Source of the DNA: a phage
Length of the DNA: 64,000 nucleotides
Strand: one strand, 5' to 3'
Assembly (NCBI GenBank): GCA_020773975.1
Contig: GCA_020773975.1_3638.1
Position numbers and translations under genes: made by a program
Shown: positions 3,374-45,311 of the stretch, one piece after another
How positions within the stretch are numbered: the stretch's first letter is position 1
How the letters are laid out: each line of letters opens with the position of its first letter
Notes under the pieces: generated by a model
The model's input: the letters and a program-made list of their open reading frames with translations, nothing else
What the model was told of the DNA's origin: nothing
The model's database searches: none

Positions 3374-4711
3374 ATGTTGCATGTTTTCAAAAAAGAAGAT
3401 TTTCAAAGAGAGTACGACATTTTGTGCTCTTTTATACCAAAAGGTGTTTATGATTTATTGTCGAAGCTGGATGTTAAGATAGCTGGCGGTGCAATAACCT
3501 CTTTGTTCTCTAATAGTAAAGTCAACGATCTTGATTTGTATTTCCCATCTTGGGAAAGCCTTGAGATATTCATTGCGTACATGATGGATAAAAATCTCTT
3601 AGGTGGAAAGTATGATTTAGCCGCACAGACAAACGGATGGGGAAATCAAAAAAGAACTTTTAGGTATTTTTATAACCTTGATAATGGGCAGGGTTCTCAT
3701 TTAGGTTTCACAGATCCTTTGTCAAGATGTAAAAATCTTCATTTTGAAGATGAAGATCTTCCAAACCTTACCAGAGTTGGTGTAACCGATAAGAGTGTGA
3801 TGCTGTACTTTGGGAAAGACCCTGTATTACAGTGTGTTGCTGTGGATGTGTTCAAAACAACAGAAGATATCTTTAGCAAAGTTGATTTTACAATCAACAT
3901 GGGCGCTTTTAACTTCAAGGATGGTGTGTGGGAATTTGATAGCAATTTCTTAAAACATATTGCTCAAAGGGTTTTAGTTGTAAATCATAAGACTGAATAC
4001 CCGATTATATCACTTTTGAGATCTGAAAAATATAAATCTCGTGGTTATACAATTTCGAAAAAAGAGACAATGAAACTGGCTATGACCATTGCTAGCCTTC
4101 AGATACAAAGTTGGGAATCGGCAAAGTCACATCTTAGCGGGATGTACGGAATGAAACTGTCTGATATCTTTGATGAGACAAAGCCGTTTTCACTTGATTT
4201 TTTGGTTGAGTGTCTAGACAGATTAGAATCTGGTTGCCAGCAGATAGACAAAAATGTTACCCCTGTGCAACCGTTGCCGTTTAATGATGTGTCCCAAGTT
4301 AATATGTTCAGTATTTTCCAAAGATTAAGAAAAGCAACAGGCAGGAAATACTTTACAAAACTATATGGGGTTTGTCCTGCTGAAGTTTTCTATCTTATGA
4401 TGCCAACAAAAGATACACATTATGTTGGGCTTCACAAAGAAGATATAGCAAATAATTTTCCAACTCTCAGACTTTATGTTGATGAAACGGAGGCAAGAGG
4501 AGAGTACAAAATTCTGTGTGAGAACGGAGAGATAGATGGCTATGGGTTTACAATATATCGGCCAGGTGCAGTTCTGTTAAAGGTTTCTGTAAGCGATACG
4601 TCAAAGATCCAATACGATATAGGTTATTTTAATGATTTGTGTATTTCTGAAAACAGAAAAACAACACTGAAAATTGAAAACATTATTGAGTGTGATGGGG
4701 ATATATCATGA
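3374..4711 (+). CDS. putative tRNA nucleotidyltransferase-like (CCA-adding/poly(A) polymerase family) protein
   Basis: ORF trimmed to ATG after AAGGA RBS; head motif KIAGGAITSLF...NDLDLYF aligns with GGAVRD...DxD, and SKVDFTINMGAF aligns with RRDxTINA at matching spacing. Confidence 0.5.
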   Translation: MLHVFKKEDFQREYDILCSFIPKGVYDLLSKLDVKIAGGAITSLFSNSKVNDLDLYFPSWESLEIFIAYMMDKNLLGGKYDLAAQTNGWGNQKRTFRYFYNLDNGQGSHLGFTDPLSRCKNLHFEDEDLPNLTRVGVTDKSVMLYFGKDPVLQCVAVDVFKTTEDIFSKVDFTINMGAFNFKDGVWEFDSNFLKHIAQRVLVVNHKTEYPIISLLRSEKYKSRGYTISKKETMKLAMTIASLQIQSWESAKSHLSGMYGMKLSDIFDETKPFSLDFLVECLDRLESGCQQIDKNVTPVQPLPFNDVSQVNMFSIFQRLRKATGRKYFTKLYGVCPAEVFYLMMPTKDTHYVGLHKEDIANNFPTLRLYVDETEARGEYKILCENGEIDGYGFTIYRPGAVLLKVSVSDTSKIQYDIGYFNDLCISENRKTTLKIENIIECDGDIS

Positions 4712-5109
4712 TATGGTTTAAAACGCTGTTAACTTTCTTTTCTAAGAACATAAAACAGATAGGTGTTGTTTTGTGTTGTGTGATGCTCGTTTGGGGTGTT
4801 GTGGAGATAAAGCATTGGTATAATGACCAGTTAACATCGTCATACAACGCAGGTGTCAGCGACACTGATCTTAAATGGGAGAGGATTAACCAGCAAGTTC
4901 GGGATCATAATAACGCTTTTAAAAAACAACAGCAGGATAAGATCGATGAGTTGTCAACCATGTTGGTGAAAGAGAGAGAAATTAATAACCAACTGAAAGA
5001 AGACCTTGATAAAAAGGTTAAAAGTTATAGCAAAACACAAGCAGGAAAACAGGTTTGCCTAGATAACCAGTTTGTTGATATTTATAACGATAGTCTGGGG
5101 GTGAAATGA
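4708..5109 (+). CDS. putative i-spanin (Rz-like)
   Basis: N-terminal TM helix followed by charged coiled-coil-like periplasmic domain; overlaps next gene start. Confidence 0.5.
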   Translation: MIWFKTLLTFFSKNIKQIGVVLCCVMLVWGVVEIKHWYNDQLTSSYNAGVSDTDLKWERINQQVRDHNNAFKKQQQDKIDELSTMLVKEREINNQLKEDLDKKVKSYSKTQAGKQVCLDNQFVDIYNDSLGVK

Positions 5110-9572: not shown

Positions 9573-11114
9573 GTGTCAACAAGATTTGCACAACAAGAAG
9601 AGATTTCTAAAGCAGGTAATGAGAGACTTGCTGTTAGTCGTCTTCGCACCGGAGAGTTAGGCTCTGGTGCTCTTTCTCAACTTAGGGCTGAATCAGAGAT
9701 TATGAAAGTTAAGGAGTTGAGATGGCCTAATTTCATCGCCACTGTTGAAGCCATGAAGCAAGACCATACAGTTTCCACAGCCCTTGATACAAAGTATGTC
9801 TTTGTAACTAAAGCATTCAATGATTTTAAAATCTTGTATAACAGAGATAGCAGAAAATCTAAGAAAGCTGCTGAGTTTGTGGAGTATGCGCTGAAGAATC
9901 TTGCTAACCAACAAACTCTACGTGACATAGCCCGAAGCGCAGCAACGTTCAATGAGTATGGGTTTTCGATATTTGAAAAAGTTTATCGTACTGAGCCAGA
10001 GACTTCAAGGTATGCTGGGTATATTACGATTGATAAAATTGCATTCAGGCCACAGTGCAGTCTTTCTAGATCAAAGCCTTGGGTATTTGATGCCGATGGT
10101 AAGACGCTGAAGGGCATTAACCAAAGCAGTTTGGCTTTCTCCAATTTACAAAACGGAATGCTGGGGGATACTTTAAACATTATCCGTAAATTGACTAATG
10201 GTGATGATGTTTTTATTCCAGTTAATAAGTTGATGATAATGAGTTTGGGGGGTACGGAATCCAACCCTGCTGGGTTATCACCTTTGGTTGGTTGTTATAG
10301 GGCATTCCGAGAGAAGATCCTTATAGAAAATTTGGAGACTATCGGAGCATCTAAAGATCTTGGTGGTATCATAGAACTTAAGATACCCTCCCAGATCCTT
10401 AATAAAGCAGCAATAGACCCAACATCACCAGAAGCTGCTATGGTGCAAGGACTAATGGCAGATGCTGCAAACGCACACGCTGGGGAACAAGCCTATTTTA
10501 TCTTACCATCTGACCTCAATAATCAAGGTGGTAAACAATATGAAATGTCCCTTAAAGGGATCGATGGCGCAGGTAAACAATACAGCACACAAGAGCTTGT
10601 TAACTCTCGCAAGAAGGCTATTCTTGATCGTTTTGGTGCGGGGTTTATTAACTTAGGTAACGATGGGCAAGGATCTTATAATCTTTCAGAATCAAAACAA
10701 ACTATTCATGGTCATTTTGTCCAGAGAGATATTGATATTATTGTTGAGGCGTTCAATAAGAACTTAATACCTCAACTTCTTGCTTTGAACGATATAAGAT
10801 TGTCTGACGAAGATATGCCAAGACTGAAACCTGGGCTTATTCAAGAAGTCGATATGGAAGGCTTCTCTAAATTTGTTCAGCGTATTGGTGCTGTTGGGTA
10901 TTTGCCTAAAACACCTACAGTTATTAATAAAATTCTTGAGGTTGGTGGCTTTGACGAAGAAATCCCTGAAGATATGGAGCTTGATGAATTGTTGCAAATT
11001 CTTGGTCAGGATGTAAGCCGTTCTGGAGATGGTATGACACCAGGATCAACAGGTAACGGAACATCAAAAATATCTACTGTCAGGGATAATTCTGTTTCTA
11101 ATTTAGAGAATTAA
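9573..11114 (+). CDS. putative portal protein (513 aa)
   Basis: GTG start after GAGGGGA; size and position immediately downstream of terminase; acidic C-terminal tail. Confidence 0.5.
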   Translation: MSTRFAQQEEISKAGNERLAVSRLRTGELGSGALSQLRAESEIMKVKELRWPNFIATVEAMKQDHTVSTALDTKYVFVTKAFNDFKILYNRDSRKSKKAAEFVEYALKNLANQQTLRDIARSAATFNEYGFSIFEKVYRTEPETSRYAGYITIDKIAFRPQCSLSRSKPWVFDADGKTLKGINQSSLAFSNLQNGMLGDTLNIIRKLTNGDDVFIPVNKLMIMSLGGTESNPAGLSPLVGCYRAFREKILIENLETIGASKDLGGIIELKIPSQILNKAAIDPTSPEAAMVQGLMADAANAHAGEQAYFILPSDLNNQGGKQYEMSLKGIDGAGKQYSTQELVNSRKKAILDRFGAGFINLGNDGQGSYNLSESKQTIHGHFVQRDIDIIVEAFNKNLIPQLLALNDIRLSDEDMPRLKPGLIQEVDMEGFSKFVQRIGAVGYLPKTPTVINKILEVGGFDEEIPEDMELDELLQILGQDVSRSGDGMTPGSTGNGTSKISTVRDNSVSNLEN

Positions 11115-13286: not shown

Positions 13287-14300
13287 ATGGCAGCAGTACA
13301 GACTAACGACTTTCAAATCGTAAACCTTGGCGCAGCACTGGAACTTGTTCCACGTCAGTATCGCCTGATTACCAACATGGATCTGTTCACCGCTTACCAT
13401 GGTGAAACCACAATTGCTCGTGTTGAGCGTGTTGACGAAATTGTTGCGGATATTCCTGCACGTCGTCGTGGTGGAGAACGTAACTATGTGGGTAGTGAAA
13501 AAGCCCAAATCAAGAACTTCAACATTCCGTTCTTCCCTCTGGATCGTCAGATCACTGCGGCAGATGTTCAGAACTTCCGTAAATACTTCACTACGGACGC
13601 TCCGAGAACTGTTGAAGACGTAGTTGCTCGCGTAGTTAAGCGTATTCGCGTTTCTCATGAACAACTGAAAGAAAAAGCAATGGTTCAGGCAATCATGGGT
13701 AAATCATGGTCTCCACAAGATCCGACCGCACAGTACAACTACTTTACTGAGTGGGGAGTTACCCAGCATACTGCCAATATCAACTTCACAGATGTTGCAG
13801 TTGACCCGTCTGACCTGATTGAGAAAGACGCTCGTGCATACATTATCGACAATGCAGGTGATAACGGCAATAACTACAATATCATTGTTCTGGCTTCTCG
13901 TAAATGGTTCTCTGCTCTGATCGCCCATCCGCTGATCATGAACGCTTACCAGTATTACTCTTCTACCCAAGAGCCGCTGCGTCGTCGTCTGGGTATGGGT
14001 TCTGAGAATGCCAACAACCGTATGTTTGTTCATAAGAACGTAACCTACATTGAAGACATCTCTGGATATATCCCAGATGGTGAGGCGTACATCCTGCCGC
14101 AAGGTATTGATGATATGTTCCAGATCCATTACGCTCCGGCAGACGATGTTCGTGAAGCGAACACTGTAGCTGAAGAACTGTACCTGTGGTACAAATCTTC
14201 TGCATATCTGCGTGAAGAGAAAGTTGAATCTGAGACTTCCTTCTTGACGGTTAACACCCGTCCTGAACTGGTTGTACGTTCTACAGGTACTTTCGCATAA
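13287..14300 (+). CDS. putative major capsid protein (337 aa)
   Basis: Strong RBS AAGGAGA, highly biased codon usage (CGT, CTG, GGT) typical of abundant virion proteins, followed by a strong terminator; synteny. Confidence 0.6.
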   Translation: MAAVQTNDFQIVNLGAALELVPRQYRLITNMDLFTAYHGETTIARVERVDEIVADIPARRRGGERNYVGSEKAQIKNFNIPFFPLDRQITAADVQNFRKYFTTDAPRTVEDVVARVVKRIRVSHEQLKEKAMVQAIMGKSWSPQDPTAQYNYFTEWGVTQHTANINFTDVAVDPSDLIEKDARAYIIDNAGDNGNNYNIIVLASRKWFSALIAHPLIMNAYQYYSSTQEPLRRRLGMGSENANNRMFVHKNVTYIEDISGYIPDGEAYILPQGIDDMFQIHYAPADDVREANTVAEELYLWYKSSAYLREEKVESETSFLTVNTRPELVVRSTGTFA

Positions 14301-14325
14301 GATAGCTTAAATGCTACCTCTAATG

Positions 14326-14355
14326 AGGGGAGGTGATAATTCACCTCCCCTTTTT
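14326..14355 (+). terminator. rho-independent terminator after capsid gene
   Basis: AGGGGAGGTGA-TAAT-TCACCTCCCC hairpin followed by TTTTT. Confidence 0.7.
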
Positions 14356-14431
14356 CACATTCTGACTTTAATAATAACCACTTATCCTGTATTGTAAAGT
14401 GGTTTTTACTAAGGAATAAAAAGGAGAATTT

Positions 14432-14938
14432 ATGGCGAATCAAAATTATCGTATTTTCCCTAACAAAGTTGAGCTGTTTAAATTTTTCGGAGCATATGCA
14501 CCACAATTGAATGCAGCAGTATCTGCAAGACTGCCTTTGAACGGTTTGTGTGTGGGGACACAACACAAGGCATTCCGAAATACGGTTGAATTTTTCACTG
14601 CTCTTGCTGAGATGTCTGGTCTGGATGTTGATGCGCAGCATTCTACCATTCGTATGGGTTCTTATATCGTATTCTTTAATAAAGATATTCCTAATCCAAA
14701 CAGTATGGGTAAGATAGTTGATGCTAAGATTGTTACAGCACAAGAGAAGAAAGATGGAGAGCCACTTTCAGTTGAAGAGATTTTGGCTGAAGCAGAGAAG
14801 TTGAATGACGAAACTGATAAGAAAGGTAGTAAGGATAAACTGGCTGAGTTTGCACTCTCTAAAGGTGTTACATTGGCTAAGAATAAATCTTTTGAGAAGA
14901 TGATTGCTGATTTAAAATCTGAATTAGAAGTATCCTAA
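14432..14938 (+). CDS. hypothetical virion protein (168 aa)
   Basis: ORF track; RBS AAGGAGA; no recognisable motif. Confidence 0.4.
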   Translation: MANQNYRIFPNKVELFKFFGAYAPQLNAAVSARLPLNGLCVGTQHKAFRNTVEFFTALAEMSGLDVDAQHSTIRMGSYIVFFNKDIPNPNSMGKIVDAKIVTAQEKKDGEPLSVEEILAEAEKLNDETDKKGSKDKLAEFALSKGVTLAKNKSFEKMIADLKSELEVS

Positions 14939-14956
14939 TTTTTAAGGAGTTAAGCC

Positions 14957-16234
14957 ATGACAGCAACTACAGGTGTTGGCGGGTTAATTTATGGTCGTGC
15001 ATTAGTTGACCAGAAAACAGGAAAGAAAATAAATTTTGATGAGTTGGGTGGTGGGAATATCCCAGAAGATATAACAGAACTTATTGCATCTAAAGCCCCA
15101 ATAGAAAGCCCTTCATTTACAGGGAAACCTCAAGCACCAACACCATCGGATGATGCGGTAGGGAAGGAAATAACTAATGTAGAGTATGTTAAAAATCTAA
15201 TTGCAAAACTAGTTAACTCAGCACCTGAGACATTGGACACTCTCAATGAGTTGGCAAAAGCATTAGGTGATGACCCCAATTTTGCGACAACGGTCACTAA
15301 TGAACTGGCAGGTAAACAGCCGCTGAACGACGTGCTGACGGCAATCAGTGAACTGAAGCAACGGGCAGATAATCTTCTGTGCTTTAATCAGGACGGGAAT
15401 GCTTCACTGTCCCCGCTGTCAGAAAAAGCCCGGTCACTGCTGGCACTGGACACGACAGAAGCCATGCGCACGGAGCTTGAACTGAAGGCTGCCGCGACAA
15501 TGGATGTTCAGAGCGATATCCGTGACCGCACAGAAGGGCGTCTGGCCCTGCCGGGAGCATATGGTTACGGGCGTCTGTTCGCGTACGATGAGCACCTTTA
15601 CGTGAACGACGAACCCCAGGGCAGGAACTGGATAAAGAGTGCCACGCCGGGACGGTATGCGCTTACTTTTCGCGATGTCTCCTGGCTGCTTCCCGGCGTG
15701 AAAACATTTTCCGGCATTATTGATGTACTCCAGTCACCATTCACCATCAGTGATGATGAGCGTGGTGCCAAAAACATGACACTGGTCTGTTATAACCAGC
15801 GTGGTGATGGTGAAAACAGCATTCATATAGTCAGCTACAGTGTTTCCGGTGATGAGCTGAGCTTCACATCGTCCACTGTTGTCTCAGACGGTCTTTCACT
15901 GGCCCGGTTGATGTCGGTGACGACAGGAGAGGGGCCGTCATCCTGGTACAGGTATCCGGATGTTGGCGCGCCAGTTCTGGCTGTGTATCAGGGAACAGCG
16001 GCCGGAGATAACTCAGTCAAAATAGGCCTGGGAGATACGGTGCCGGGGTCACGACTTGGTCCGGTGAGTATTACCTGTACATTCAGTCAGTCTGGCATAT
16101 CGGAGTCCACACCGTCTGTAAACACAGGAGGTGCAGGTGCATACAGTTTTCCGGGGCGTTATCAGGCGCTGTCCGGGTGGAAGCAGGGAGGGTCAGCCCG
16201 TGGCTGTATCTGCCTGTTCGTGCGCATTGAGTAA
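14957..16234 (+). CDS. tail fibre protein, mosaic (phage-like N-terminus, GC-rich C-terminal receptor-binding region)
   Basis: Conserved fibre motif SPSFTGKPQAPTPSDD...LAKALGDDPNFATT; composition switches to GC-rich at about 15300. Confidence 0.6.
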   Translation: MTATTGVGGLIYGRALVDQKTGKKINFDELGGGNIPEDITELIASKAPIESPSFTGKPQAPTPSDDAVGKEITNVEYVKNLIAKLVNSAPETLDTLNELAKALGDDPNFATTVTNELAGKQPLNDVLTAISELKQRADNLLCFNQDGNASLSPLSEKARSLLALDTTEAMRTELELKAAATMDVQSDIRDRTEGRLALPGAYGYGRLFAYDEHLYVNDEPQGRNWIKSATPGRYALTFRDVSWLLPGVKTFSGIIDVLQSPFTISDDERGAKNMTLVCYNQRGDGENSIHIVSYSVSGDELSFTSSTVVSDGLSLARLMSVTTGEGPSSWYRYPDVGAPVLAVYQGTAAGDNSVKIGLGDTVPGSRLGPVSITCTFSQSGISESTPSVNTGGAGAYSFPGRYQALSGWKQGGSARGCICLFVRIE

Positions 16235-16249
16235 CGGGGTAAATAAGGC

Positions 16250-16825
16250 ATGAAAATCAGAGCGGTAAAAGGCATCAGAAACGCACATTATCTTGAAAAT
16301 GGTGCGGTTGACTGCGAGGTGTTATTTGAAGGCGAAACGGAATTCGTTCCGTATACCGCCATGCGTGACGACAGCGCCCGGACAGGGCGGTATATCTGGC
16401 GGGAGCTGCAAAGCGGCAAATGGGGTGAAGTCGCGCCGTTTACCGTCACGCCTGAACGTATCGCTGCGGCAAAAGCAGCCAAAAAACAGGAAATCGAGGC
16501 ATGGCAAACAGAGCAGGAAGCGCTGGCGTTCACGTTCGAATGGAACGGTCGAACGTGGAATGGAGGTGCGTCCTCAGTATCCCGTCTCACGCCAGCGGTG
16601 ATGACGGCAAAGTCAGAGAGTCGCGAGGAGACAGAGTGGAGTGATGCGGAAAACAGGCGGGTGAAGCTGTCGTTGCAGAAACTGGAAGAGTTGCTTACAG
16701 CGATGGTGCAGGAGCAGGTTATTCGCAACGATGAGATTTATCGCCGGCAGCGGGAGATGAAGGATGAACTGAATAACCTGGAGGATTTAAGCTCAATCAG
16801 AGCGATGACGATTAGCAGCAGTTAG
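16250..16825 (+). CDS. tail fibre assembly protein (Tfa-like chaperone)
   Basis: GC-rich; lambda Tfa-like segments (FTFEWNGRTWNGG, C-terminal DEIYRRQREMKDELNNLEDLSSI); directly downstream of the fibre gene. Confidence 0.55.
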   Translation: MKIRAVKGIRNAHYLENGAVDCEVLFEGETEFVPYTAMRDDSARTGRYIWRELQSGKWGEVAPFTVTPERIAAAKAAKKQEIEAWQTEQEALAFTFEWNGRTWNGGASSVSRLTPAVMTAKSESREETEWSDAENRRVKLSLQKLEELLTAMVQEQVIRNDEIYRRQREMKDELNNLEDLSSIRAMTISSS

Positions 16826-17192
16826 CGGTCAATTAGCCCAGAAAAAAAAACGCGAAGTTACAAAAGAGTGGAGAAAACGGGAAGAAAGCTCTACAACTAT
16901 TGTTTCCTATAATGGTGCAAGGTATGATGTTGATAATGCAACTCTTGATCGTATTTATCCAGTATTATTAGCACAAAAAGCATCCTCGGCTAGGCAAGCT
17001 GTGATTTGGAGAGATGTTGATAACAGACCTGTTGAGATGAGTAGCTCTGAATTTGAAAATCTTGTTGTAGCTATGTCTTCCGAGTTGGCAACCAAGAATG
17101 ATACAATATACACTAGGCAACGAGAGATGAAAGACCAAGTGCTTTCAGCCTCTACAGTTGAGGAATTGCAAAGTATAACAATTGGGTGGTAG
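16826..17192 (+). pseudogene. remnant 3' portion of an AT-rich tail fibre assembly gene (displaced tfa)
   Basis: Frame open from about 16809 with no start; translation is homologous to the C-terminal half of 16250..16825 (DTIYTRQREMKDQVL vs DEIYRRQREMKDELN); ORF track shows only 17001..17192. Confidence 0.45.
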
Positions 17193-17494
17193 CTACGGAT
17201 TATAAGGATAAAGTTGTCAATGCTGAAGTTATACTTCCAGATGGGCATAGTATTGGAGGATCAGGACTCCCAAACCAATCTTTTAAATTATACACAGAAG
17301 ACACCGCGACCATAAAACTTTCAGGTAATGGTGAAAAAGCAACACCACTTAAAGGTGTTGTTGTGGTGGCAGAAGATGAAAATAATGCTCTCCAAGCTGG
17401 AGATAATGGGTTAGCTGGAGTAATACCCGAAGCAGGTGCTGATGAAGCCTCACATGAATTTAATTATGTTGTTCAATATAGTTACACAAGTTAA
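17186..17494 (+). CDS. hypothetical protein (102 aa)
   Basis: ORF track. Confidence 0.3.
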   Translation: MVATDYKDKVVNAEVILPDGHSIGGSGLPNQSFKLYTEDTATIKLSGNGEKATPLKGVVVVAEDENNALQAGDNGLAGVIPEAGADEASHEFNYVVQYSYTS

Positions 17495-17505
17495 AAGGAG
17501 AAAAT

Positions 17506-17763
17506 ATGGCAACAAATGGCGTAGCAGGTAAAGTATATGCATCAAGCCTTATTGATATAAAAACTGGAAAATCTGTGAAAATCGAAGATATTGTTGCTGG
17601 AGGCTCAGATAGCTATGTTCTTCCAGCGGCTACGGAATCAGTATTAGGAGGTGTTAAGAAAGCACAAACACAAGCAGATTCTGTGGCTTCAGATGTCTCT
17701 ACGTTGGTCAACGATTTTAATGCTTTGCTTGCCAAATTGAAAGCCGCTGGTATTATGTCGTGA
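17506..17763 (+). CDS. small protein sharing the N-terminal motif of the tail fibre (85 aa)
   Basis: MATNGVAGKVYASSLIDIKTGKSVKIEDIVAGG aligns with the N-terminus of 14957..16234; RBS AAGGAGA. Confidence 0.4.
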   Translation: MATNGVAGKVYASSLIDIKTGKSVKIEDIVAGGSDSYVLPAATESVLGGVKKAQTQADSVASDVSTLVNDFNALLAKLKAAGIMS

Positions 17764-17765
17764 TA

Positions 17766-17792
17766 AAAAGACCCTTCGGGGTCTTTTATTTT
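17766..17792. terminator. bidirectional rho-independent terminator
   Basis: AGACCC-TTCG-GGGTCT hairpin flanked by A-run and T-run; sits between convergent genes. Confidence 0.65.
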
Positions 17793-18190
17793 AGGATTCC
17801 TTGCACTCCTTTATCCAAGTTTGCATTAATATACACTTCCCGCCCATCTTTGTAAAAAGTGCAGATGTATTTTCCAGTGTAAGATTGTTTTCCTGAGATA
17901 ATTGCGACATCATCAAAATATTGATATGCTTCCGCCTGTTCTGCTATCCTACCCTCGAAACCTGATGACACAACAATAACGCCTGGTTTAAATGCTTCTC
18001 TAAATCTCTTATCGCAAGATAATTGTACAATACGGCTAATTGCCTCATCTTTTTCTTCTGGCGACAACCAACTTGCCTCGACAGATTTATAATCATTAAT
18101 ATCTGGGTTCTTTTTCACATATTGGAAAGTTCCCGCTGCAATAACAGCACAGACGCACAGACCAATTGTAATTTTTAAAATATTTTTCAT
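17786..18190 (-). CDS. secreted (signal-peptide) protein of unknown function, moron-like
   Basis: Only minus-strand gene in the structural module; N-terminal signal peptide MKNILKITIGLCVCAVIAAG; GGAGG RBS; own promoter and terminator. Confidence 0.55.
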   Translation of the reverse strand: MKNILKITIGLCVCAVIAAGTFQYVKKNPDINDYKSVEASWLSPEEKDEAISRIVQLSCDKRFREAFKPGVIVVSSGFEGRIAEQAEAYQYFDDVAIISGKQSYTGKYICTFYKDGREVYINANLDKGVQGILK

Positions 18191-18216
18191 AAATCCTCCA
18201 TAGCAATTGTTGTGTT

Positions 18217-18245
18217 TATCTTACCTACGGAATTTTTCGTGTCAA
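18217..18245 (-). promoter_or_regulatory. putative sigma70-type promoter for the secreted-protein gene
   Basis: On minus strand TTGACA, 17-nt spacer, AAGATA, about 25 nt upstream of the RBS. Confidence 0.35.
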
Positions 18246-18317
18246 GCGTTTTTAATGACAAAAATTGTATTTTGTGATAATATAGTTACTGACAAGTAAC
18301 ATAAAATGGAGAGTTAG

Positions 18318-18836
18318 ATGACAGACCAAGAAATTGTTGATTACATCAGGCTCCTGCTTGGGTCAATATCCCCAGAGGCACTACCTGATGAAGTTATCAT
18401 GGCATTCCTTGAGATGGAGAAAAAAAGAGCAAACTGGCCTAACCCATCATCCACGCCTTGCGACATGTGGAAAGTGGTCTATAACACAATGGTGGCTGTA
18501 TTAAGATGGTTAATTCTTCAAGAGATAAATTCTGGCGAGGCATCCATCACAGAAAGATTGGAAAAGATAGGTGATGAGACAATACAGGTGAAAGGCGGCT
18601 CATCATACCAGAACTGGAAAGATTTTCTGGACTGGCTACTGCAAAACCCTGATTACGTCAATAGTTGTCTGAATGGTGTCTCTGGTTTGATTATTGTAGG
18701 TGGTGTGCGGCAGGATGAGTTTTGGCGTGTCAAGAACAATCCAAACTCCAGAAGCCCGTTTGATGTTTCTGGTATAGTTCCTCAAACAGGAGTCCCCGGT
18801 ATTCCTCGGAGATACCCAAAACACAGGTATTATTGA
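18318..18836 (+). CDS. hypothetical protein, possible head-tail connector component (172 aa)
   Basis: ORF track; position between fibre block and sheath; upstream ATGACA/TAATAT promoter-like sequence. Confidence 0.35.
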   Translation: MTDQEIVDYIRLLLGSISPEALPDEVIMAFLEMEKKRANWPNPSSTPCDMWKVVYNTMVAVLRWLILQEINSGEASITERLEKIGDETIQVKGGSSYQNWKDFLDWLLQNPDYVNSCLNGVSGLIIVGGVRQDEFWRVKNNPNSRSPFDVSGIVPQTGVPGIPRRYPKHRYY

Positions 18837-42310: not shown

Positions 42311-42432
42311 CGTTAATTTTAATCAAAGGGAAGTCAGTAATCAAGACATGATTTAAACCAACGGCAGTAACAAGGTATTTCTGCTCTGGATCCCAAGACA
42401 ATTTAGACTTGTACAAACAACCTTGTCTAATT

Positions 42433-43068
42433 TTAAAATCTTCCACACACCCACCCTTCACAGTTGTGATCACGACATCCTTCAAAATCATATGGGCTGT
42501 ACTGCCAGGTTATTTTTCCGCAGTGCGGACAATTCCAGCGCACTTTCCCGCTTCGTGACCTCTTCCTTCTGTTCTGCTTTTTCAACCAATCAGGCATGAC
42601 CAAACCTGCGCCCTGAACCATTGTTCTGCGGTTAAAGTTATTGATATTGAACGTCCGGCGCTTTGCTGCATCAGCAATGGAAAATGGCAACCAAACTATT
42701 CCTGGTTCGTTTTTGTTGGCGACGCTAAAGATGGTCGCTTTACTGAAGTCATCTGTTGGCAATCCACCGTGTTGAAGCCAGTAAACATCGTTGCCGTTCC
42801 AGCTACCTTTTTTGTAGGCCACATACGCAGTGCAATCTGACTCAATCAGGCTTTCTGTAGGGATGTACTGGCAATCAACGTGCCACACAGCCATTGCATC
42901 CACACTATCAGCGCAAACAGGTTGATCGATATCTCGACCACAATTCCAGGCTTTTTGGGCTTCTTCCAGCGTGTAAACATGAGCGCGATCGATATCATAA
43001 CTGTAACCATTGCCGTTATGGCAATGGAATGAGGCGTTATTACCCACAGTTTCACGCAAGCACATCAT
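42433..43068 (-). CDS. hypothetical protein with C-terminal CxxC zinc ribbon (GC-rich island)
   Basis: ORF track 42433..43119 trimmed to internal Met; C-terminal WNCPHCGKITW...CEGWVCGRF; enterobacterial-like composition. Confidence 0.35.
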   Translation of the reverse strand: MMCLRETVGNNASFHCHNGNGYSYDIDRAHVYTLEEAQKAWNCGRDIDQPVCADSVDAMAVWHVDCQYIPTESLIESDCTAYVAYKKGSWNGNDVYWLQHGGLPTDDFSKATIFSVANKNEPGIVWLPFSIADAAKRRTFNINNFNRRTMVQGAGLVMPDWLKKQNRRKRSRSGKVRWNCPHCGKITWQYSPYDFEGCRDHNCEGWVCGRF

Positions 43069-43082
43069 GTAAAAACGGTTGC

Positions 43083-43532
43083 TCACTGGTTGCCTCCGTT
43101 GCGAAGCTGTTCCGCACAATGCCGCAGGGCATCCGTAGCATCTTTAAGCGTAACCATCTCGTCATCATCCAGTCCTGCTCCCCTCGCATCCATGACAAAC
43201 GCTGCGCAAAGGTCGTTAAACACTTCAGCCCGTATTTCAGCCAGAAAAGCATCGGTGGCTGGGGTTTTGATATCATAAATTTCAGGAAGAATCTCTTCCC
43301 ATGTGACGATATCACCATTCAAATGCCAATCGGCAATCCCACTGGAGTTATCAGCAACATCGTGGACAGCTTTAATCGCTCTGTGCAGGGCTATATTCTC
43401 AGCAACCAATTCTGCACAACGAGTCTCCAGTTCTGAGATTTTCTTTTTATTATGGTATCCCTTTTCTAAAAGAGTTGCGCATTTACTACCTAGGCGTTTG
43501 ATTTCATTGGTGTACACTGATTTCTCAGTCAT
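43083..43532 (-). CDS. hypothetical protein, lambdoid-prophage-like (149 aa)
   Basis: ORF track; GC-rich; N-terminal coiled coil. Confidence 0.35.
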   Translation of the reverse strand: MTEKSVYTNEIKRLGSKCATLLEKGYHNKKKISELETRCAELVAENIALHRAIKAVHDVADNSSGIADWHLNGDIVTWEEILPEIYDIKTPATDAFLAEIRAEVFNDLCAAFVMDARGAGLDDDEMVTLKDATDALRHCAEQLRNGGNQ

Positions 43533-43752
43533 GGTTGGCTACCCCTTTCTTCAACAACTTGATGTTAGTTTTAAGTTCTGCAATTTGACACATAGCGTCA
43601 ATATTTGTGTCTTCTAACTTCTTAATTTCATCAAGAAGTGTCAATACAACCTCCGGTGTTACCATACTACGATAATCCGTCACCTCTTGATAAGTACCGC
43701 CATCTCTTGCTATCTCTGCTAACTTACGTAATTCTTGGTAGTCAATTTTCAT
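43525..43752 (-). CDS. hypothetical protein (75 aa)
   Basis: ORF track; GC-rich island. Confidence 0.3.
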   Translation of the reverse strand: MKIDYQELRKLAEIARDGGTYQEVTDYRSMVTPEVVLTLLDEIKKLEDTNIDAMCQIAELKTNIKLLKKGVANHD

Positions 43753-44146
43753 AACTTGATAAGTCCTGCGTTGTTTTATTTACTACATCATATGCCTCTT
43801 TGAGCACCCAGTCAACAGCATCTTTCCATGCTCCGGTTTCGACTGGTGGATTCTCACGCTTAACCTGTTCATAGAAGCGCACTGCTTTAATCAATCCTTC
43901 TAAGGTTACAGGTGTGGTGTATAACGCCTGAATTTCGTAGTTTGGTCTGTCGTTACAATCCTCTTTTGTCGGTACATATTTCCAGTCACCAACCCACGGC
44001 TCCCCCTGAGAGTCCGTAACGCCTTTTTTCACGTAGCGATATCGCCATGCAACTGGTTGTTGGGTTGCTGCTTTAAGGCTTGGTGACGAAGATGGAAGCG
44101 CAACATTAGTCATTTCCGAGATGACAGGTTGATAACCATTGCTCAT
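43742..44146 (-). CDS. hypothetical protein (134 aa)
   Basis: ORF track; GC-rich island. Confidence 0.3.
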   Translation of the reverse strand: MSNGYQPVISEMTNVALPSSSPSLKAATQQPVAWRYRYVKKGVTDSQGEPWVGDWKYVPTKEDCNDRPNYEIQALYTTPVTLEGLIKAVRFYEQVKRENPPVETGAWKDAVDWVLKEAYDVVNKTTQDLSSYEN

Positions 44147-44321
44147 TTAAATCTCCTCCTGCCTCATATGCCACTTGTAACCAATACATAAATGTTTCAA
44201 TAGAAACACAACCACAATCCACATCAATCTGGTCATGTTGTTGTTCCAACCACTGCTGAAAACGTGATTTTTGAGTATCATTCTCTGGTTGTTCTTTTAT
44301 CATTATCACCCCCATCGGCAA
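44106..44321 (-). CDS. hypothetical protein (71 aa)
   Basis: ORF track; GC-rich island. Confidence 0.25.
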   Translation of the reverse strand: MPMGVIMIKEQPENDTQKSRFQQWLEQQHDQIDVDCGCVSIETFMYWLQVAYEAGGDLNEQWLSTCHLGND

Positions 44322-44385
44322 ACTGAGTACACTGCAAAGGCTACAGCCATTACAACCCCTACCGTTGTGAATGCTTCAGGCCAAG

Positions 44386-45048
44386 TCATTGATTCATCCC
44401 CTTCTTTTTGAGCATAGCGGCACGACAGGCATTCCAGCCATCAACATAATCAAACGTATTGCTATCGTCTGGCTCGATTTCATCTGGTACTGCCAATGTC
44501 GGCTGGGCGGCAGCATTGGCAAAGGCTGCACGCAACCCTGTCTTAATCTCCTCTACCTCATCAGCACCTAGCGATGAATCTGACAGTGCATGATGGAATG
44601 CGTATGCCATGTCGTCGTTTACTGTTATCGGTTCCACTTTCTTTACTGTAAGTGTTGGCGGTACATGATACAACGGGATTACACGACGCGGGTCTGTACC
44701 TTTACCTGGTGGGTACGGCATTATCCAGCCTAAACCAATCTGATCAACATCCCGCAACTCCTCTTCGTCCGTCCATCCCACCGGTTCTGCTCTCAACTCC
44801 ACCTGCGCATTAGGGGAGGTGTAGAGTGGGATTCCTTTCCTCCCACCAGAAAATTCATTGCGAGCGTTATACTCACGACCATCTGCGTCCTCACACATCC
44901 ATGCTACAGGCTCTGTTTCCAGCACTGCCAGAGCAATTCGAGCCAGTTCTTGCGCTTCTTCTGCTGGCAGTACAACGTTGCCACCAAGTCCGTATGTTTC
45001 GCGCCATTGCTTGATTGTCAGCAGACGTTCTTTGGTAATAGTGGTCAT
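44386..45048 (-). CDS. hypothetical protein, prophage-like (220 aa)
   Basis: ORF track; GC-rich; acidic. Confidence 0.35.
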   Translation of the reverse strand: MTTITKERLLTIKQWRETYGLGGNVVLPAEEAQELARIALAVLETEPVAWMCEDADGREYNARNEFSGGRKGIPLYTSPNAQVELRAEPVGWTDEEELRDVDQIGLGWIMPYPPGKGTDPRRVIPLYHVPPTLTVKKVEPITVNDDMAYAFHHALSDSSLGADEVEEIKTGLRAAFANAAAQPTLAVPDEIEPDDSNTFDYVDGWNACRAAMLKKKGMNQ

Positions 45049-45050
45049 AA

Positions 45051-45311
45051 CTATTTCACCTTAATCTCAACATTTCTCACATCTAGCTCTACGGGGAGTT
45101 CTGACTTTCCGGTCAGTGCTAATGCAAGATTTTCTGGGGTAACAAGGACAGTTATTGTTTTTCCTCTCTCCAGACGAATAGCCATTCTTATCTTGTCATC
45201 ATCACCTGTGTTAGGTCGAGTAATTGATATTTGTCCGTTCATATATTTATCCTTTGTTATTAATATGCCAATCCTTAACAAATAGTTATGTGAATGAAAG
45301 AAAGCAACCAA
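45051..45311 (-). CDS. hypothetical small protein
   Basis: ORF track; true start may be the internal Met (MNGQISITRP). Confidence 0.3.
   Translation of the reverse strand: MVAFFHSHNYLLRIGILITKDKYMNGQISITRPNTGDDDKIRMAIRLERGKTITVLVTPENLALALTGKSELPVELDVRNVEIKVK

Follow-up and report, generated by a model that had tools for sequence, protein, structure and literature searches.

A probable exchange of fibre tip and chaperone gene between an Avunavirus-type phage and an Escherichia coli prophage

Introduction

How does the fibre gene of an AT-rich phage come to end in GC-rich DNA, and why is the chaperone gene behind it followed by an AT-rich reading frame that has no start? These questions are raised by a locus in a phage stretch of 64,000 nucleotides (nt), here called the window, which belongs to contig GCA_020773975.1_3638.1 of assembly GCA_020773975.1. 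The locus follows the major capsid gene (13287-14300) and precedes the tail-sheath region; its gene order is identical to that of Escherichia phage 19-1-2. The surroundings of the locus and 24 kb downstream identify the window as Avunavirus-like (Vequintavirinae), with the Escherichia phages Av-05, 18-1-2, 19-1-2, 24-2-1 and vB_EcoM_TH18 (TH18) as its relatives; nucleotide identity to Av-05, 19-1-2 and TH18 is ~96% over 90-93% of the 24-kb tail module. Our analysis makes it very probable that an Avunavirus-type phage swapped its fibre tip and chaperone gene for a cassette of the type found at the Rac prophage site of E. coli, and that the 3′ end of the old chaperone gene was left behind as a fossil. 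Both parents and both junctions of the exchange were identified, the hybrid open reading frames (ORFs) are intact, and the transfer is recent (0.66% divergence from the donor).

Origin of the GC-rich segment

The original prediction, which was made from the letters of the window, placed a switch to GC-rich composition within the fibre gene near 15300, and a sliding-window plot showed a clear discontinuity at this point. In steps of 200 nt, the fraction of guanine and cytosine (GC) rises from 0.36-0.41 (14800-15299) to 0.55-0.59 (15300-15699), stays at 0.46-0.58 up to ~16800, and then returns to 0.39-0.41. The GC-rich part had been expected to run through the chaperone gene until 16825, which it does, and the donor-derived segment was found to extend to 16861. 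The GC content of 15340-16861 is 53.8%, compared to 40.1% over the rest of the 64 kb, and at the 1.5-kb scale this is the sole region of the 64 kb that lies more than 3 standard deviations (SD) above the mean. Codon usage follows the same division. The GC content of third codon positions (GC3) in the fibre gene is 0.243 for codons 1-103 versus 0.552 for codons 129-425, and the GC3 of the chaperone gene, 0.599, is the highest among 67 long ORFs (mean 0.352, SD 0.063, z = 3.9).

Alignment to the relatives delimited the foreign segment from the phage side. Av-05 and 19-1-2 align to the window until 15339 (82-84% identity) and again from 16862 (92-95%), with nothing between; in both phages the corresponding interval holds an AT-rich homologous fibre tip and an intact chaperone gene of 189 amino acids (aa). 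A tblastn search recovered this AT-rich chaperone allele from five Avunavirus genomes only, and it is intact in all five. The AT-rich fibre tip, too, is intact in each of these relatives. The coordinates of the features are collected in Table 1.

Table 1. Features of the fibre locus, in window coordinates.
Feature	Position	Strand	Evidence or remark
Hybrid fibre gene, 425 aa	14957..16234	+	N-terminal third Avunavirus-type, C-terminal two thirds E. coli prophage side-tail-fibre type
Resident 5′ part of fibre gene (virion-attachment end and shaft start)	14957..15265	+	82-84% nt identity to Av-05 and 19-1-2
Left crossover interval, within codons for GDDPNFATTVTNELAG	15266..15306	+	Five-way alignment
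Imported GC-rich segment (shaft end, receptor-binding tip, chaperone gene, 36 nt of donor 3′ flank)	15307..16861	+	No Av-05 or 19-1-2 match in 15340-16861
Imported DUF4376-type fibre chaperone gene, 191 aa	16250..16825	+	PF14301, 46.9 bits (cut-off 25)
Donor non-coding 3′ flank, with A9 run at 16842-16850	16826..16861	+
Right junction, donor flank to codon 81 of resident chaperone gene	16858..16864	+	2-4 bp microhomology (CAA / AAA)
Fossil, last 109 codons and stop of resident 189-aa DUF4376 gene	16862..17192	+	Lacks start and N-terminal 80 codons
Second fibre gene remnant, 102 codons	17186..17494	+	593 aa in 19-1-2 (peg81); Av05_0078 plus 0079

The other parent was found among E. coli prophages; a comparison with enterobacterial prophage stf/tfa genes had been proposed as a check. 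A contig of E. coli assembly GCA_021105315.1 (L005) differs from window positions 15619-16834 by 8 mismatches in 1216 nt (99.34% identity). On the 3′ side of the L005 cassette, the order, strands and sizes of the genes match uspF, ompN, ydbK, ydbJ, hslJ and ldhA of strain K-12. The uspF-ldhA side marks where the Rac (ttcA) prophage site ends on the right, and there K-12 carries stfR-tfaR-pinR. By this gene order, the L005 fibre tip and chaperone gene occupy the stfR-tfaR position of the K-12 Rac prophage. Weaker relatives of the GC-rich segment (70-80% nt identity) are present in 104 complete E. coli genomes, as well as in the lambdoid phages Rac-SA53, SerU-LTIIb, and phiP27, where they are annotated as a side tail fibre and a DUF4376 protein. 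Homologous cassettes also occur in ~80 prophage-sized contigs of IMG/VR. Searched against the same database, the new chaperone protein found solely prophage-sized contigs, at no more than 78% identity, while a search with the resident chaperone returned Av-05 itself as the sole match.

The hybrid fibre and its chaperone

The fibre protein divides in the same way as its gene. Residues 1-122 are ~93% identical to the Av-05 fibre, whereas the remainder is colinear with it at only ~30% identity. Residues 160-425 share ~96% aa identity with P0002, a 626-aa side tail fibre (Stf) of an E. coli prophage, which is the best full-length protein match to the window fibre (85% identity overall). The profile match of the window fibre is phrog_2636, tail fiber (E = 3.5e-78). 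P0002 carries both the prophage tail fibre N-terminal domain (PF08400) and the Phage_fiber_2 repeat (PF03406); both are absent from the window fibre, which gave no Pfam match at E ≤ 10. Because its N-terminus is of the Avunavirus type, the window fibre is best read as a chimera and not as a full member of the Stf family.

The chaperone gene begins 16 nt past the fibre stop. Its product (EIM2934208.1) matches phrog_1141 (E = 5.6e-76) and contains a DUF4376 domain (PF14301) at residues 73-176. The PF14301 scores of the new chaperone, the AT-rich fragment downstream, and the resident chaperone of Av-05 are 46.9, 48.0, and 46.0 bits, respectively (gathering cut-off 25). The new chaperone differs by one residue, Q86R, from the E. 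coli protein P0121 encoded on L005, and is 38% identical to the resident chaperone of Av-05. In an AlphaFold model (predicted local distance difference test score 89.7), residues 1-65 form an N-terminal beta domain. A search for Caudo_TAP (PF02413) in the new and resident chaperones gave no match even at E ≤ 10, in contrast to a neighbouring gene in an E. coli locus described below (L006), which does have this domain. The description of the gene as Tfa-like thus stands for its position and role but not for its family, which is DUF4376.

Fibre chaperones of this family are known from Alteromonas phages. For the family, the expected fold is an alpha-helical body bearing beta-hairpins, akin to the intramolecular chaperone domains in the receptor-binding proteins of T5 and K1F. 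In V22, a DUF4376 protein encoded directly 3′ of the fibre gene acts as the fibre chaperone (PMC7289586; PMC10579305). According to the latter study, V22 gp27 is required for the production of an active fibre, whereas A5 does not need its chaperone. Both V22 gp27 and A5 gp9 share the layout of the window chaperone, with a C-terminal DUF4376 domain and a gene just 3′ of the fibre gene (PMC10579305). We took this layout to comprise ~190-240 aa, a C-terminal domain, and a gene immediately after the fibre gene.

Two further sequences bear on how such tips and chaperones are distributed. A Mu-like prophage in E. coli assembly GCA_019079105.1 (L006, 6397-10475) holds two tandem pairs of fibre and chaperone genes: a Phage_fiber_2/Collar fibre with Caudo_TAP, followed by an Stf-type fibre with DUF4376. 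Tip identity between this latter fibre and that of the window is 96-100%, whereas identity in the shaft and the chaperone is only 55-85%. Since L006 shares the tip alone at this level, the tip also moves independently among prophages. In addition, a 189-aa chaperone paralogue with 95% identity (P0241, EIM2935027.1) has an accession number only 819 from that of the window chaperone; given this proximity, the isolate that yielded the phage may itself hold a related prophage cassette.

Junctions of the exchange

The left crossover was located by a five-way alignment, in which the sites that distinguish Avunavirus from stf sequences are mostly of the Avunavirus type until 15265 and entirely of the stf type from 15307. 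The 41 nt between these positions code for GDDPNFATTVTNELAG, the near-identical core of a GDDPNFATT motif that is common to both parents. A crossover here would have used the short nucleotide similarity within the widely conserved LNELAKALGDDPNFATT...AGKQP fibre motif, and would have left the reading frame unbroken and, presumably, the trimer in register.

The right end of the segment lies in non-coding DNA of the donor. Window positions 16828-16863 match L005 1257-1290, L006 10525-10558, and SerU-LTIIb 4019-4049, all of which lie 3′ of the chaperone stop. A 47-bp piece that the donor has immediately behind the chaperone stop, containing an inverted repeat (AATTCCGGGC...GCCAGGAATT) and edged by a 7-bp GTCAATT direct repeat (L005 1210-1256), is absent from the window, and the A9 run of the window flank corresponds to A5-A6 in the donors. 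Comparison with L005, SerU-LTIIb, and Av-05 showed that donor-type sequence runs to ...GAAGTTACAA and that Av-05-type sequence starts with AAAGAGTGG..., the two overlapping by 2-4 nt. Because the overlap of donor and resident sequence is so short, this end was probably closed by an illegitimate join. A module swap by recombination at the conserved fibre motif, as originally proposed, therefore describes the left end of the segment but not the right, where only microhomology is present. The 20-nt word that spans the right junction had no match in IMG/VR; three metagenome matches and one match to a Campylobacterota metagenome-assembled genome (among GTDB genomes) had nothing in common with the window apart from the seed.

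The fossil of the resident chaperone gene

The AT-rich sequence behind the right junction is an ungapped match to Av-05 (L001) 4490-4820, with 25 mismatches in 331 nt to Av-05 and 24 in 331 to 19-1-2. At 92% nucleotide identity to the Av-05 gene, it is the 3′ end of the original chaperone gene, as had been predicted. It found no match in the complete E. coli genomes, which argues against a bacterial or prophage origin. On translation it gives a Pfam DUF4376 match (E = 1.9e-12), covers profile positions 74-191 (of 194) in phrog_1141, and shares 30% identity with the intact chaperone upstream (residues 74-188).

The frame in which the fossil lies (16809-17192) is open for 127 sense codons and is preceded by a TGA at 16806-16808. 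The original prediction rightly described this frame as open, startless, and coding for the C-terminal part of a homologous chaperone, but the true remnant begins only at 16862. Before it, 16809-16825 belong to the end of the new gene, read in +1, and 16826-16861 to the donor flank. In L005 this flank does not code and has a TAG in the frame in question; up to 16861 the frame is therefore open by chance. A peptide in this part, QLAQKKKREVT (16830-16861), was considered as an older DUF4376 remnant and rejected, since in L005 the corresponding sequence is interrupted by an in-frame TAG and follows a hairpin in non-coding DNA. The first in-frame ATG, GTG or TTG of the whole frame is GTG 17001, so the fossil has no start over its first 46 codons (16863-17000). 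It also lacks the N-terminal beta domain seen in the model of the homologous new chaperone. A promoter and terminator scan of 14300-18300 gave nothing informative near the fossil.

One possibility is that the AT-rich fragment is nevertheless functional, either as a 63-aa peptide started at GTG 17001 or, through a +1 frameshift ahead of the TAG at 16823-16825, as a fusion that gives the chaperone two DUF4376 domains. The length of the open frame, its 17-nt overlap with the end of the chaperone gene, the retention of nearly the whole DUF4376 domain, and the absence of a detectable relaxation of constraint would all fit such a function. However, the first 64 codons of the frame hold no in-frame start, GTG 17001 has no convincing Shine-Dalgarno sequence on inspection, and no slippery motif is present in 16809-16822. 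Moreover, 16809-16861 is non-coding in the donor, and after so recent a transfer an open frame would be expected anyway. A function of the fragment is therefore improbable.

Weighing the evidence for a prophage donor

Several observations weigh against the transfer of a prophage cassette that left a dead gene fragment behind. The L005 contig stops at the position that matches window 15619, so that the first ~310 nt of the insert lie beyond its end and have no near-identical donor sequence; for 15270-15618, no sampled sequence was more than 84% identical, prophage stf genes being 80-84% identical. As the near-identical donor contig ends there, the left crossover was mapped with more distant stf sequences. 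The recombinant is on record from a single phage-sized contig in one E. coli draft assembly. Furthermore, the fossil contains neither stop codons nor frameshifts. Its codon differences from Av-05 are few, 11 synonymous and 12 non-synonymous; the corresponding counts for a pair of intact relatives are 8 and 9. Because this ratio resembles that of the intact relatives and no stop or frameshift is present, the inactivity of the fossil has to be argued from the missing start and the missing N-terminal domain alone. Visible decay is not to be expected, however, given the recency of the transfer.

The record from a draft assembly also raises the possibility of an artefact, in which phage reads were joined to prophage reads of the same E. 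coli isolate to give a chimeric contig. The source is a 133,857-bp contig within the E. coli assembly, and the paralogue P0241 may stem from this same assembly. A chimera would, however, require two independent misjoins that return exactly to the phage backbone, at junctions where the shared sequence (~20 nt of near-identity on the left, 2-4 nt on the right) is far below assembler k-mer sizes. Moreover, 8 substitutions and the 47-bp deletion separate the insert from the closest prophage copy, and both ORFs of the hybrid region are intact and in frame. These features make an artefact very unlikely.

Still less probable is an exchange at crossover sites in the fibre genes through an invertase of the Din family (Pin, Gin or Cin), as has been proposed for ancient stf exchanges. 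The pinR gene adjoins stfR-tfaR in the Rac prophage of K-12, and an attribution of old stf mosaics to invertase exchange is quoted in PMC3945230. Nevertheless, no gix/hix-like core (AAACCNNGGTTT, with 1 mismatch allowed) was found near the junctions, its sole match in the window being at 10827, which is below chance expectation. The left and right junctions are unlike one another, and L005 contains no invertase gene from the chaperone gene to uspF.

Finally, the true homology of the resident and imported proteins (30-48% identical) might suggest a reversed direction, with the GC-rich cassette ancestral and replaced in the relatives, or a tandem duplication of the chaperone gene, but either can be practically dismissed: the cassette has a GC3 of 0.55-0.60 against a phage mean of 0.35 and shares 99.3% identity with E. 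coli prophage DNA, against 82-96% between the phage backbone and its relatives, the fragment matches the Av-05 gene at 92% identity and the adjacent intact gene at only 30% aa identity, and the AT-rich version is present in 5 of 5 relatives.

Proposed course of the exchange

With the transfer from a prophage as the preferred explanation, the following course can be proposed. Vequintavirinae are regarded as virulent. An Avunavirus-type myovirus of this kind would have traded the distal ~300 codons of its fibre gene and the adjacent chaperone gene for the homologous stf cassette of an E. coli temperate phage, the exchanged parts being 30-38% identical. We infer that one homeologous crossover in the fibre motif and one microhomology join took place while the phage infected a lysogen, a pathway that corresponds to homology-facilitated illegitimate recombination. 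On the right, the 2-4 bp join would have connected the non-coding flank of the donor to the middle of the resident chaperone gene. Because this join falls inside the gene, its last 109 codons and stop would persist as a promoterless and startless fossil, probably without being expressed. There is a measured precedent in lambda, which on infection recombines with the stf-tfa region of Rac and Qin through diverged homology (PMC3945230).

The resulting chimeric fibre would combine the native virion-attachment end with a foreign receptor-binding tip, which would be folded by, and probably depend on, the co-transferred DUF4376 chaperone. With a foreign tip folded by its own chaperone, the phage is predicted to recognise the receptor of the donor prophage and not that of Av-05-like phages, which would amount to a change of host range.

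The second fibre gene and the surroundings of the locus

The gene that follows the fossil, which in the relatives codes for a second fibre-like protein of 593 aa and is annotated as two ORFs in Av-05, is reduced to a remnant. What is left of it are the first 76 and the last 26 codons, fused in frame with the loss of ~494 codons, and the ATG of the relatives' gene is replaced by ACG at 17195-17197. Window positions 16862-17417 match Av-05 4490-5045, and the next match begins at Av-05 6710. Since the long form is present in five relatives, a deletion in the window is the parsimonious reading. The deleted part holds two modules that are ~30% identical to the resident fibre tip, and in Av-05 it is bordered by short similar sequences (GGAGA..GG.TTA.C.GGAG). 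Because the two tip-like modules are homologous to the old tip, it might be speculated that the exchange left the 593-aa second fibre without a folding partner. A wider proposal, which we consider possible though rather doubtful, is that a recent transfer from a prophage into a virulent myovirus truncated the resident chaperone gene and so orphaned the second fibre, which was later lost, and that the outcome was a forced switch of host range and not an expansion. If so, neighbouring receptor-binding genes would be coupled in their fate through the dependence of fibres on chaperones.

An 85-aa gene that closes the locus (17506-17763) matches the C-terminus of Pfam Phage_head_fibr, the phi29 head fibre (E = 3e-17), and the first ~30 residues of its product resemble the N-terminus of the 425-aa fibre (14957-15060; BLASTP E = 2e-7). 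Given this likeness and the place of the locus directly behind the major capsid gene, one may ask whether the fibres are attached to the head or neck and not to the baseplate.

The flanks of the locus (14939-15339 and 17416-18399) are far more diverged from the relatives (82-84% identity to Av-05) than the tail module downstream (~96%), and the right flank is 93% identical to 19-1-2 versus 82% to Av-05. This divergence suggests additional, older mosaicism around the locus. In the Av-05 record (L001, NC_025830), positions 1-2966, located 5′ of the fibre gene, hold minus-strand genes (DprA-like, methyltransferase, protease), while the same place in the window (13287-14938) and in 19-1-2 is taken by the major capsid gene and a 168-aa gene. 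The difference may stem from a rearrangement or else from the assembly of the Av-05 record, which has 120.9 kb compared to ~134 kb for TH18.

A second tract of raised GC content (0.47-0.53) is present at 42400-45100 on the minus strand and consists of small genes with 93-96% nt identity to ead/Ea22-like, EaA, and DUF551 genes of lambdoid, Stx, and P1-like temperate phages and of E. coli prophages. The tract is present in all Avunavirus relatives (92-95%) and, being common to them, is an older gain from temperate phages.

Significance

The locus provides an unusually complete natural record of the exchange of a receptor-binding module, in which the parents are identified, the breakpoints are mapped, the event can be dated as recent, and a leftover piece of gene gives the direction. 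For the design of engineered fibres, it would suggest a rule: a join inside the GDDPNFATT...AGKQP motif kept the ORF intact, and the DUF4376 chaperone travels with the tip. It also bears on the safety of phage therapy, since members of the subfamily are used as lytic therapeutics and this phage took up prophage DNA of its host, and since the wider genus Avunavirus also holds the ea22/eaA-like tract of temperate-phage origin.

Comparison with known systems

Mosaic tail-fibre genes are known from lambda (stf-tfa), T4 (gp37-gp38), P2 (H-G), Mu (S-U), and P1. Neither the exchange of fibre tip and chaperone nor the motif-guided swapping in T-even phages is new; both were reported decades ago, and the principle has been textbook material since the 1990s. 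As in the present case, the distal fibre and the downstream chaperone were swapped between temperate and virulent phages that are unrelated, with crossovers in short conserved motifs. Those mosaics are ancient and diverged, however, whereas the exchange described here is recent (99.3% nt identity) and its junctions are resolved to a few nucleotides. It further differs in having one illegitimate junction, in keeping a piece of the displaced chaperone gene, and in involving DUF4376 in place of Caudo_TAP. The principle being long known, the case is a clean but ordinary example of a phage host-range change by swap of the fibre tip.

Homology-facilitated illegitimate recombination was reportedly described by de Vries and Wackernagel in 2002 for natural transformation in Acinetobacter. 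In both cases foreign DNA is integrated through homology at one end and through microhomology at the other; they are unlike in that the process is known from Acinetobacter transformation, and its operation between phage and prophage is what we infer here.

A parallel to the donor side is the uptake of DNA by lambda from the defective prophages Rac and Qin through the stf-tfa homology (De Paepe et al. 2014, PMC3945230). There, too, an infecting phage recombines with the stf region of a prophage that its E. coli host carries, and the homology used is diverged. In that system the recipient is temperate, whereas the present recipient belongs to a subfamily regarded as virulent, and recent transfer from resident prophages into strictly virulent phages was reported as not found by the same authors (PMC3945230). 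What is less usual here is the recency and direction of the event, which would have placed prophage DNA at 99.3% identity in a member of such a subfamily.

The Alteromonas phages V22 and A5 (PMC7289586, PMC10579305) resemble the window in that a DUF4376 chaperone lies just 3′ of the fibre gene and the pair moves as one host-recognition module between unrelated phage families. They differ in their hosts and tips, and in that parental sequences, junctions, and a gene fossil, which are found together in the present locus, were not reported there.

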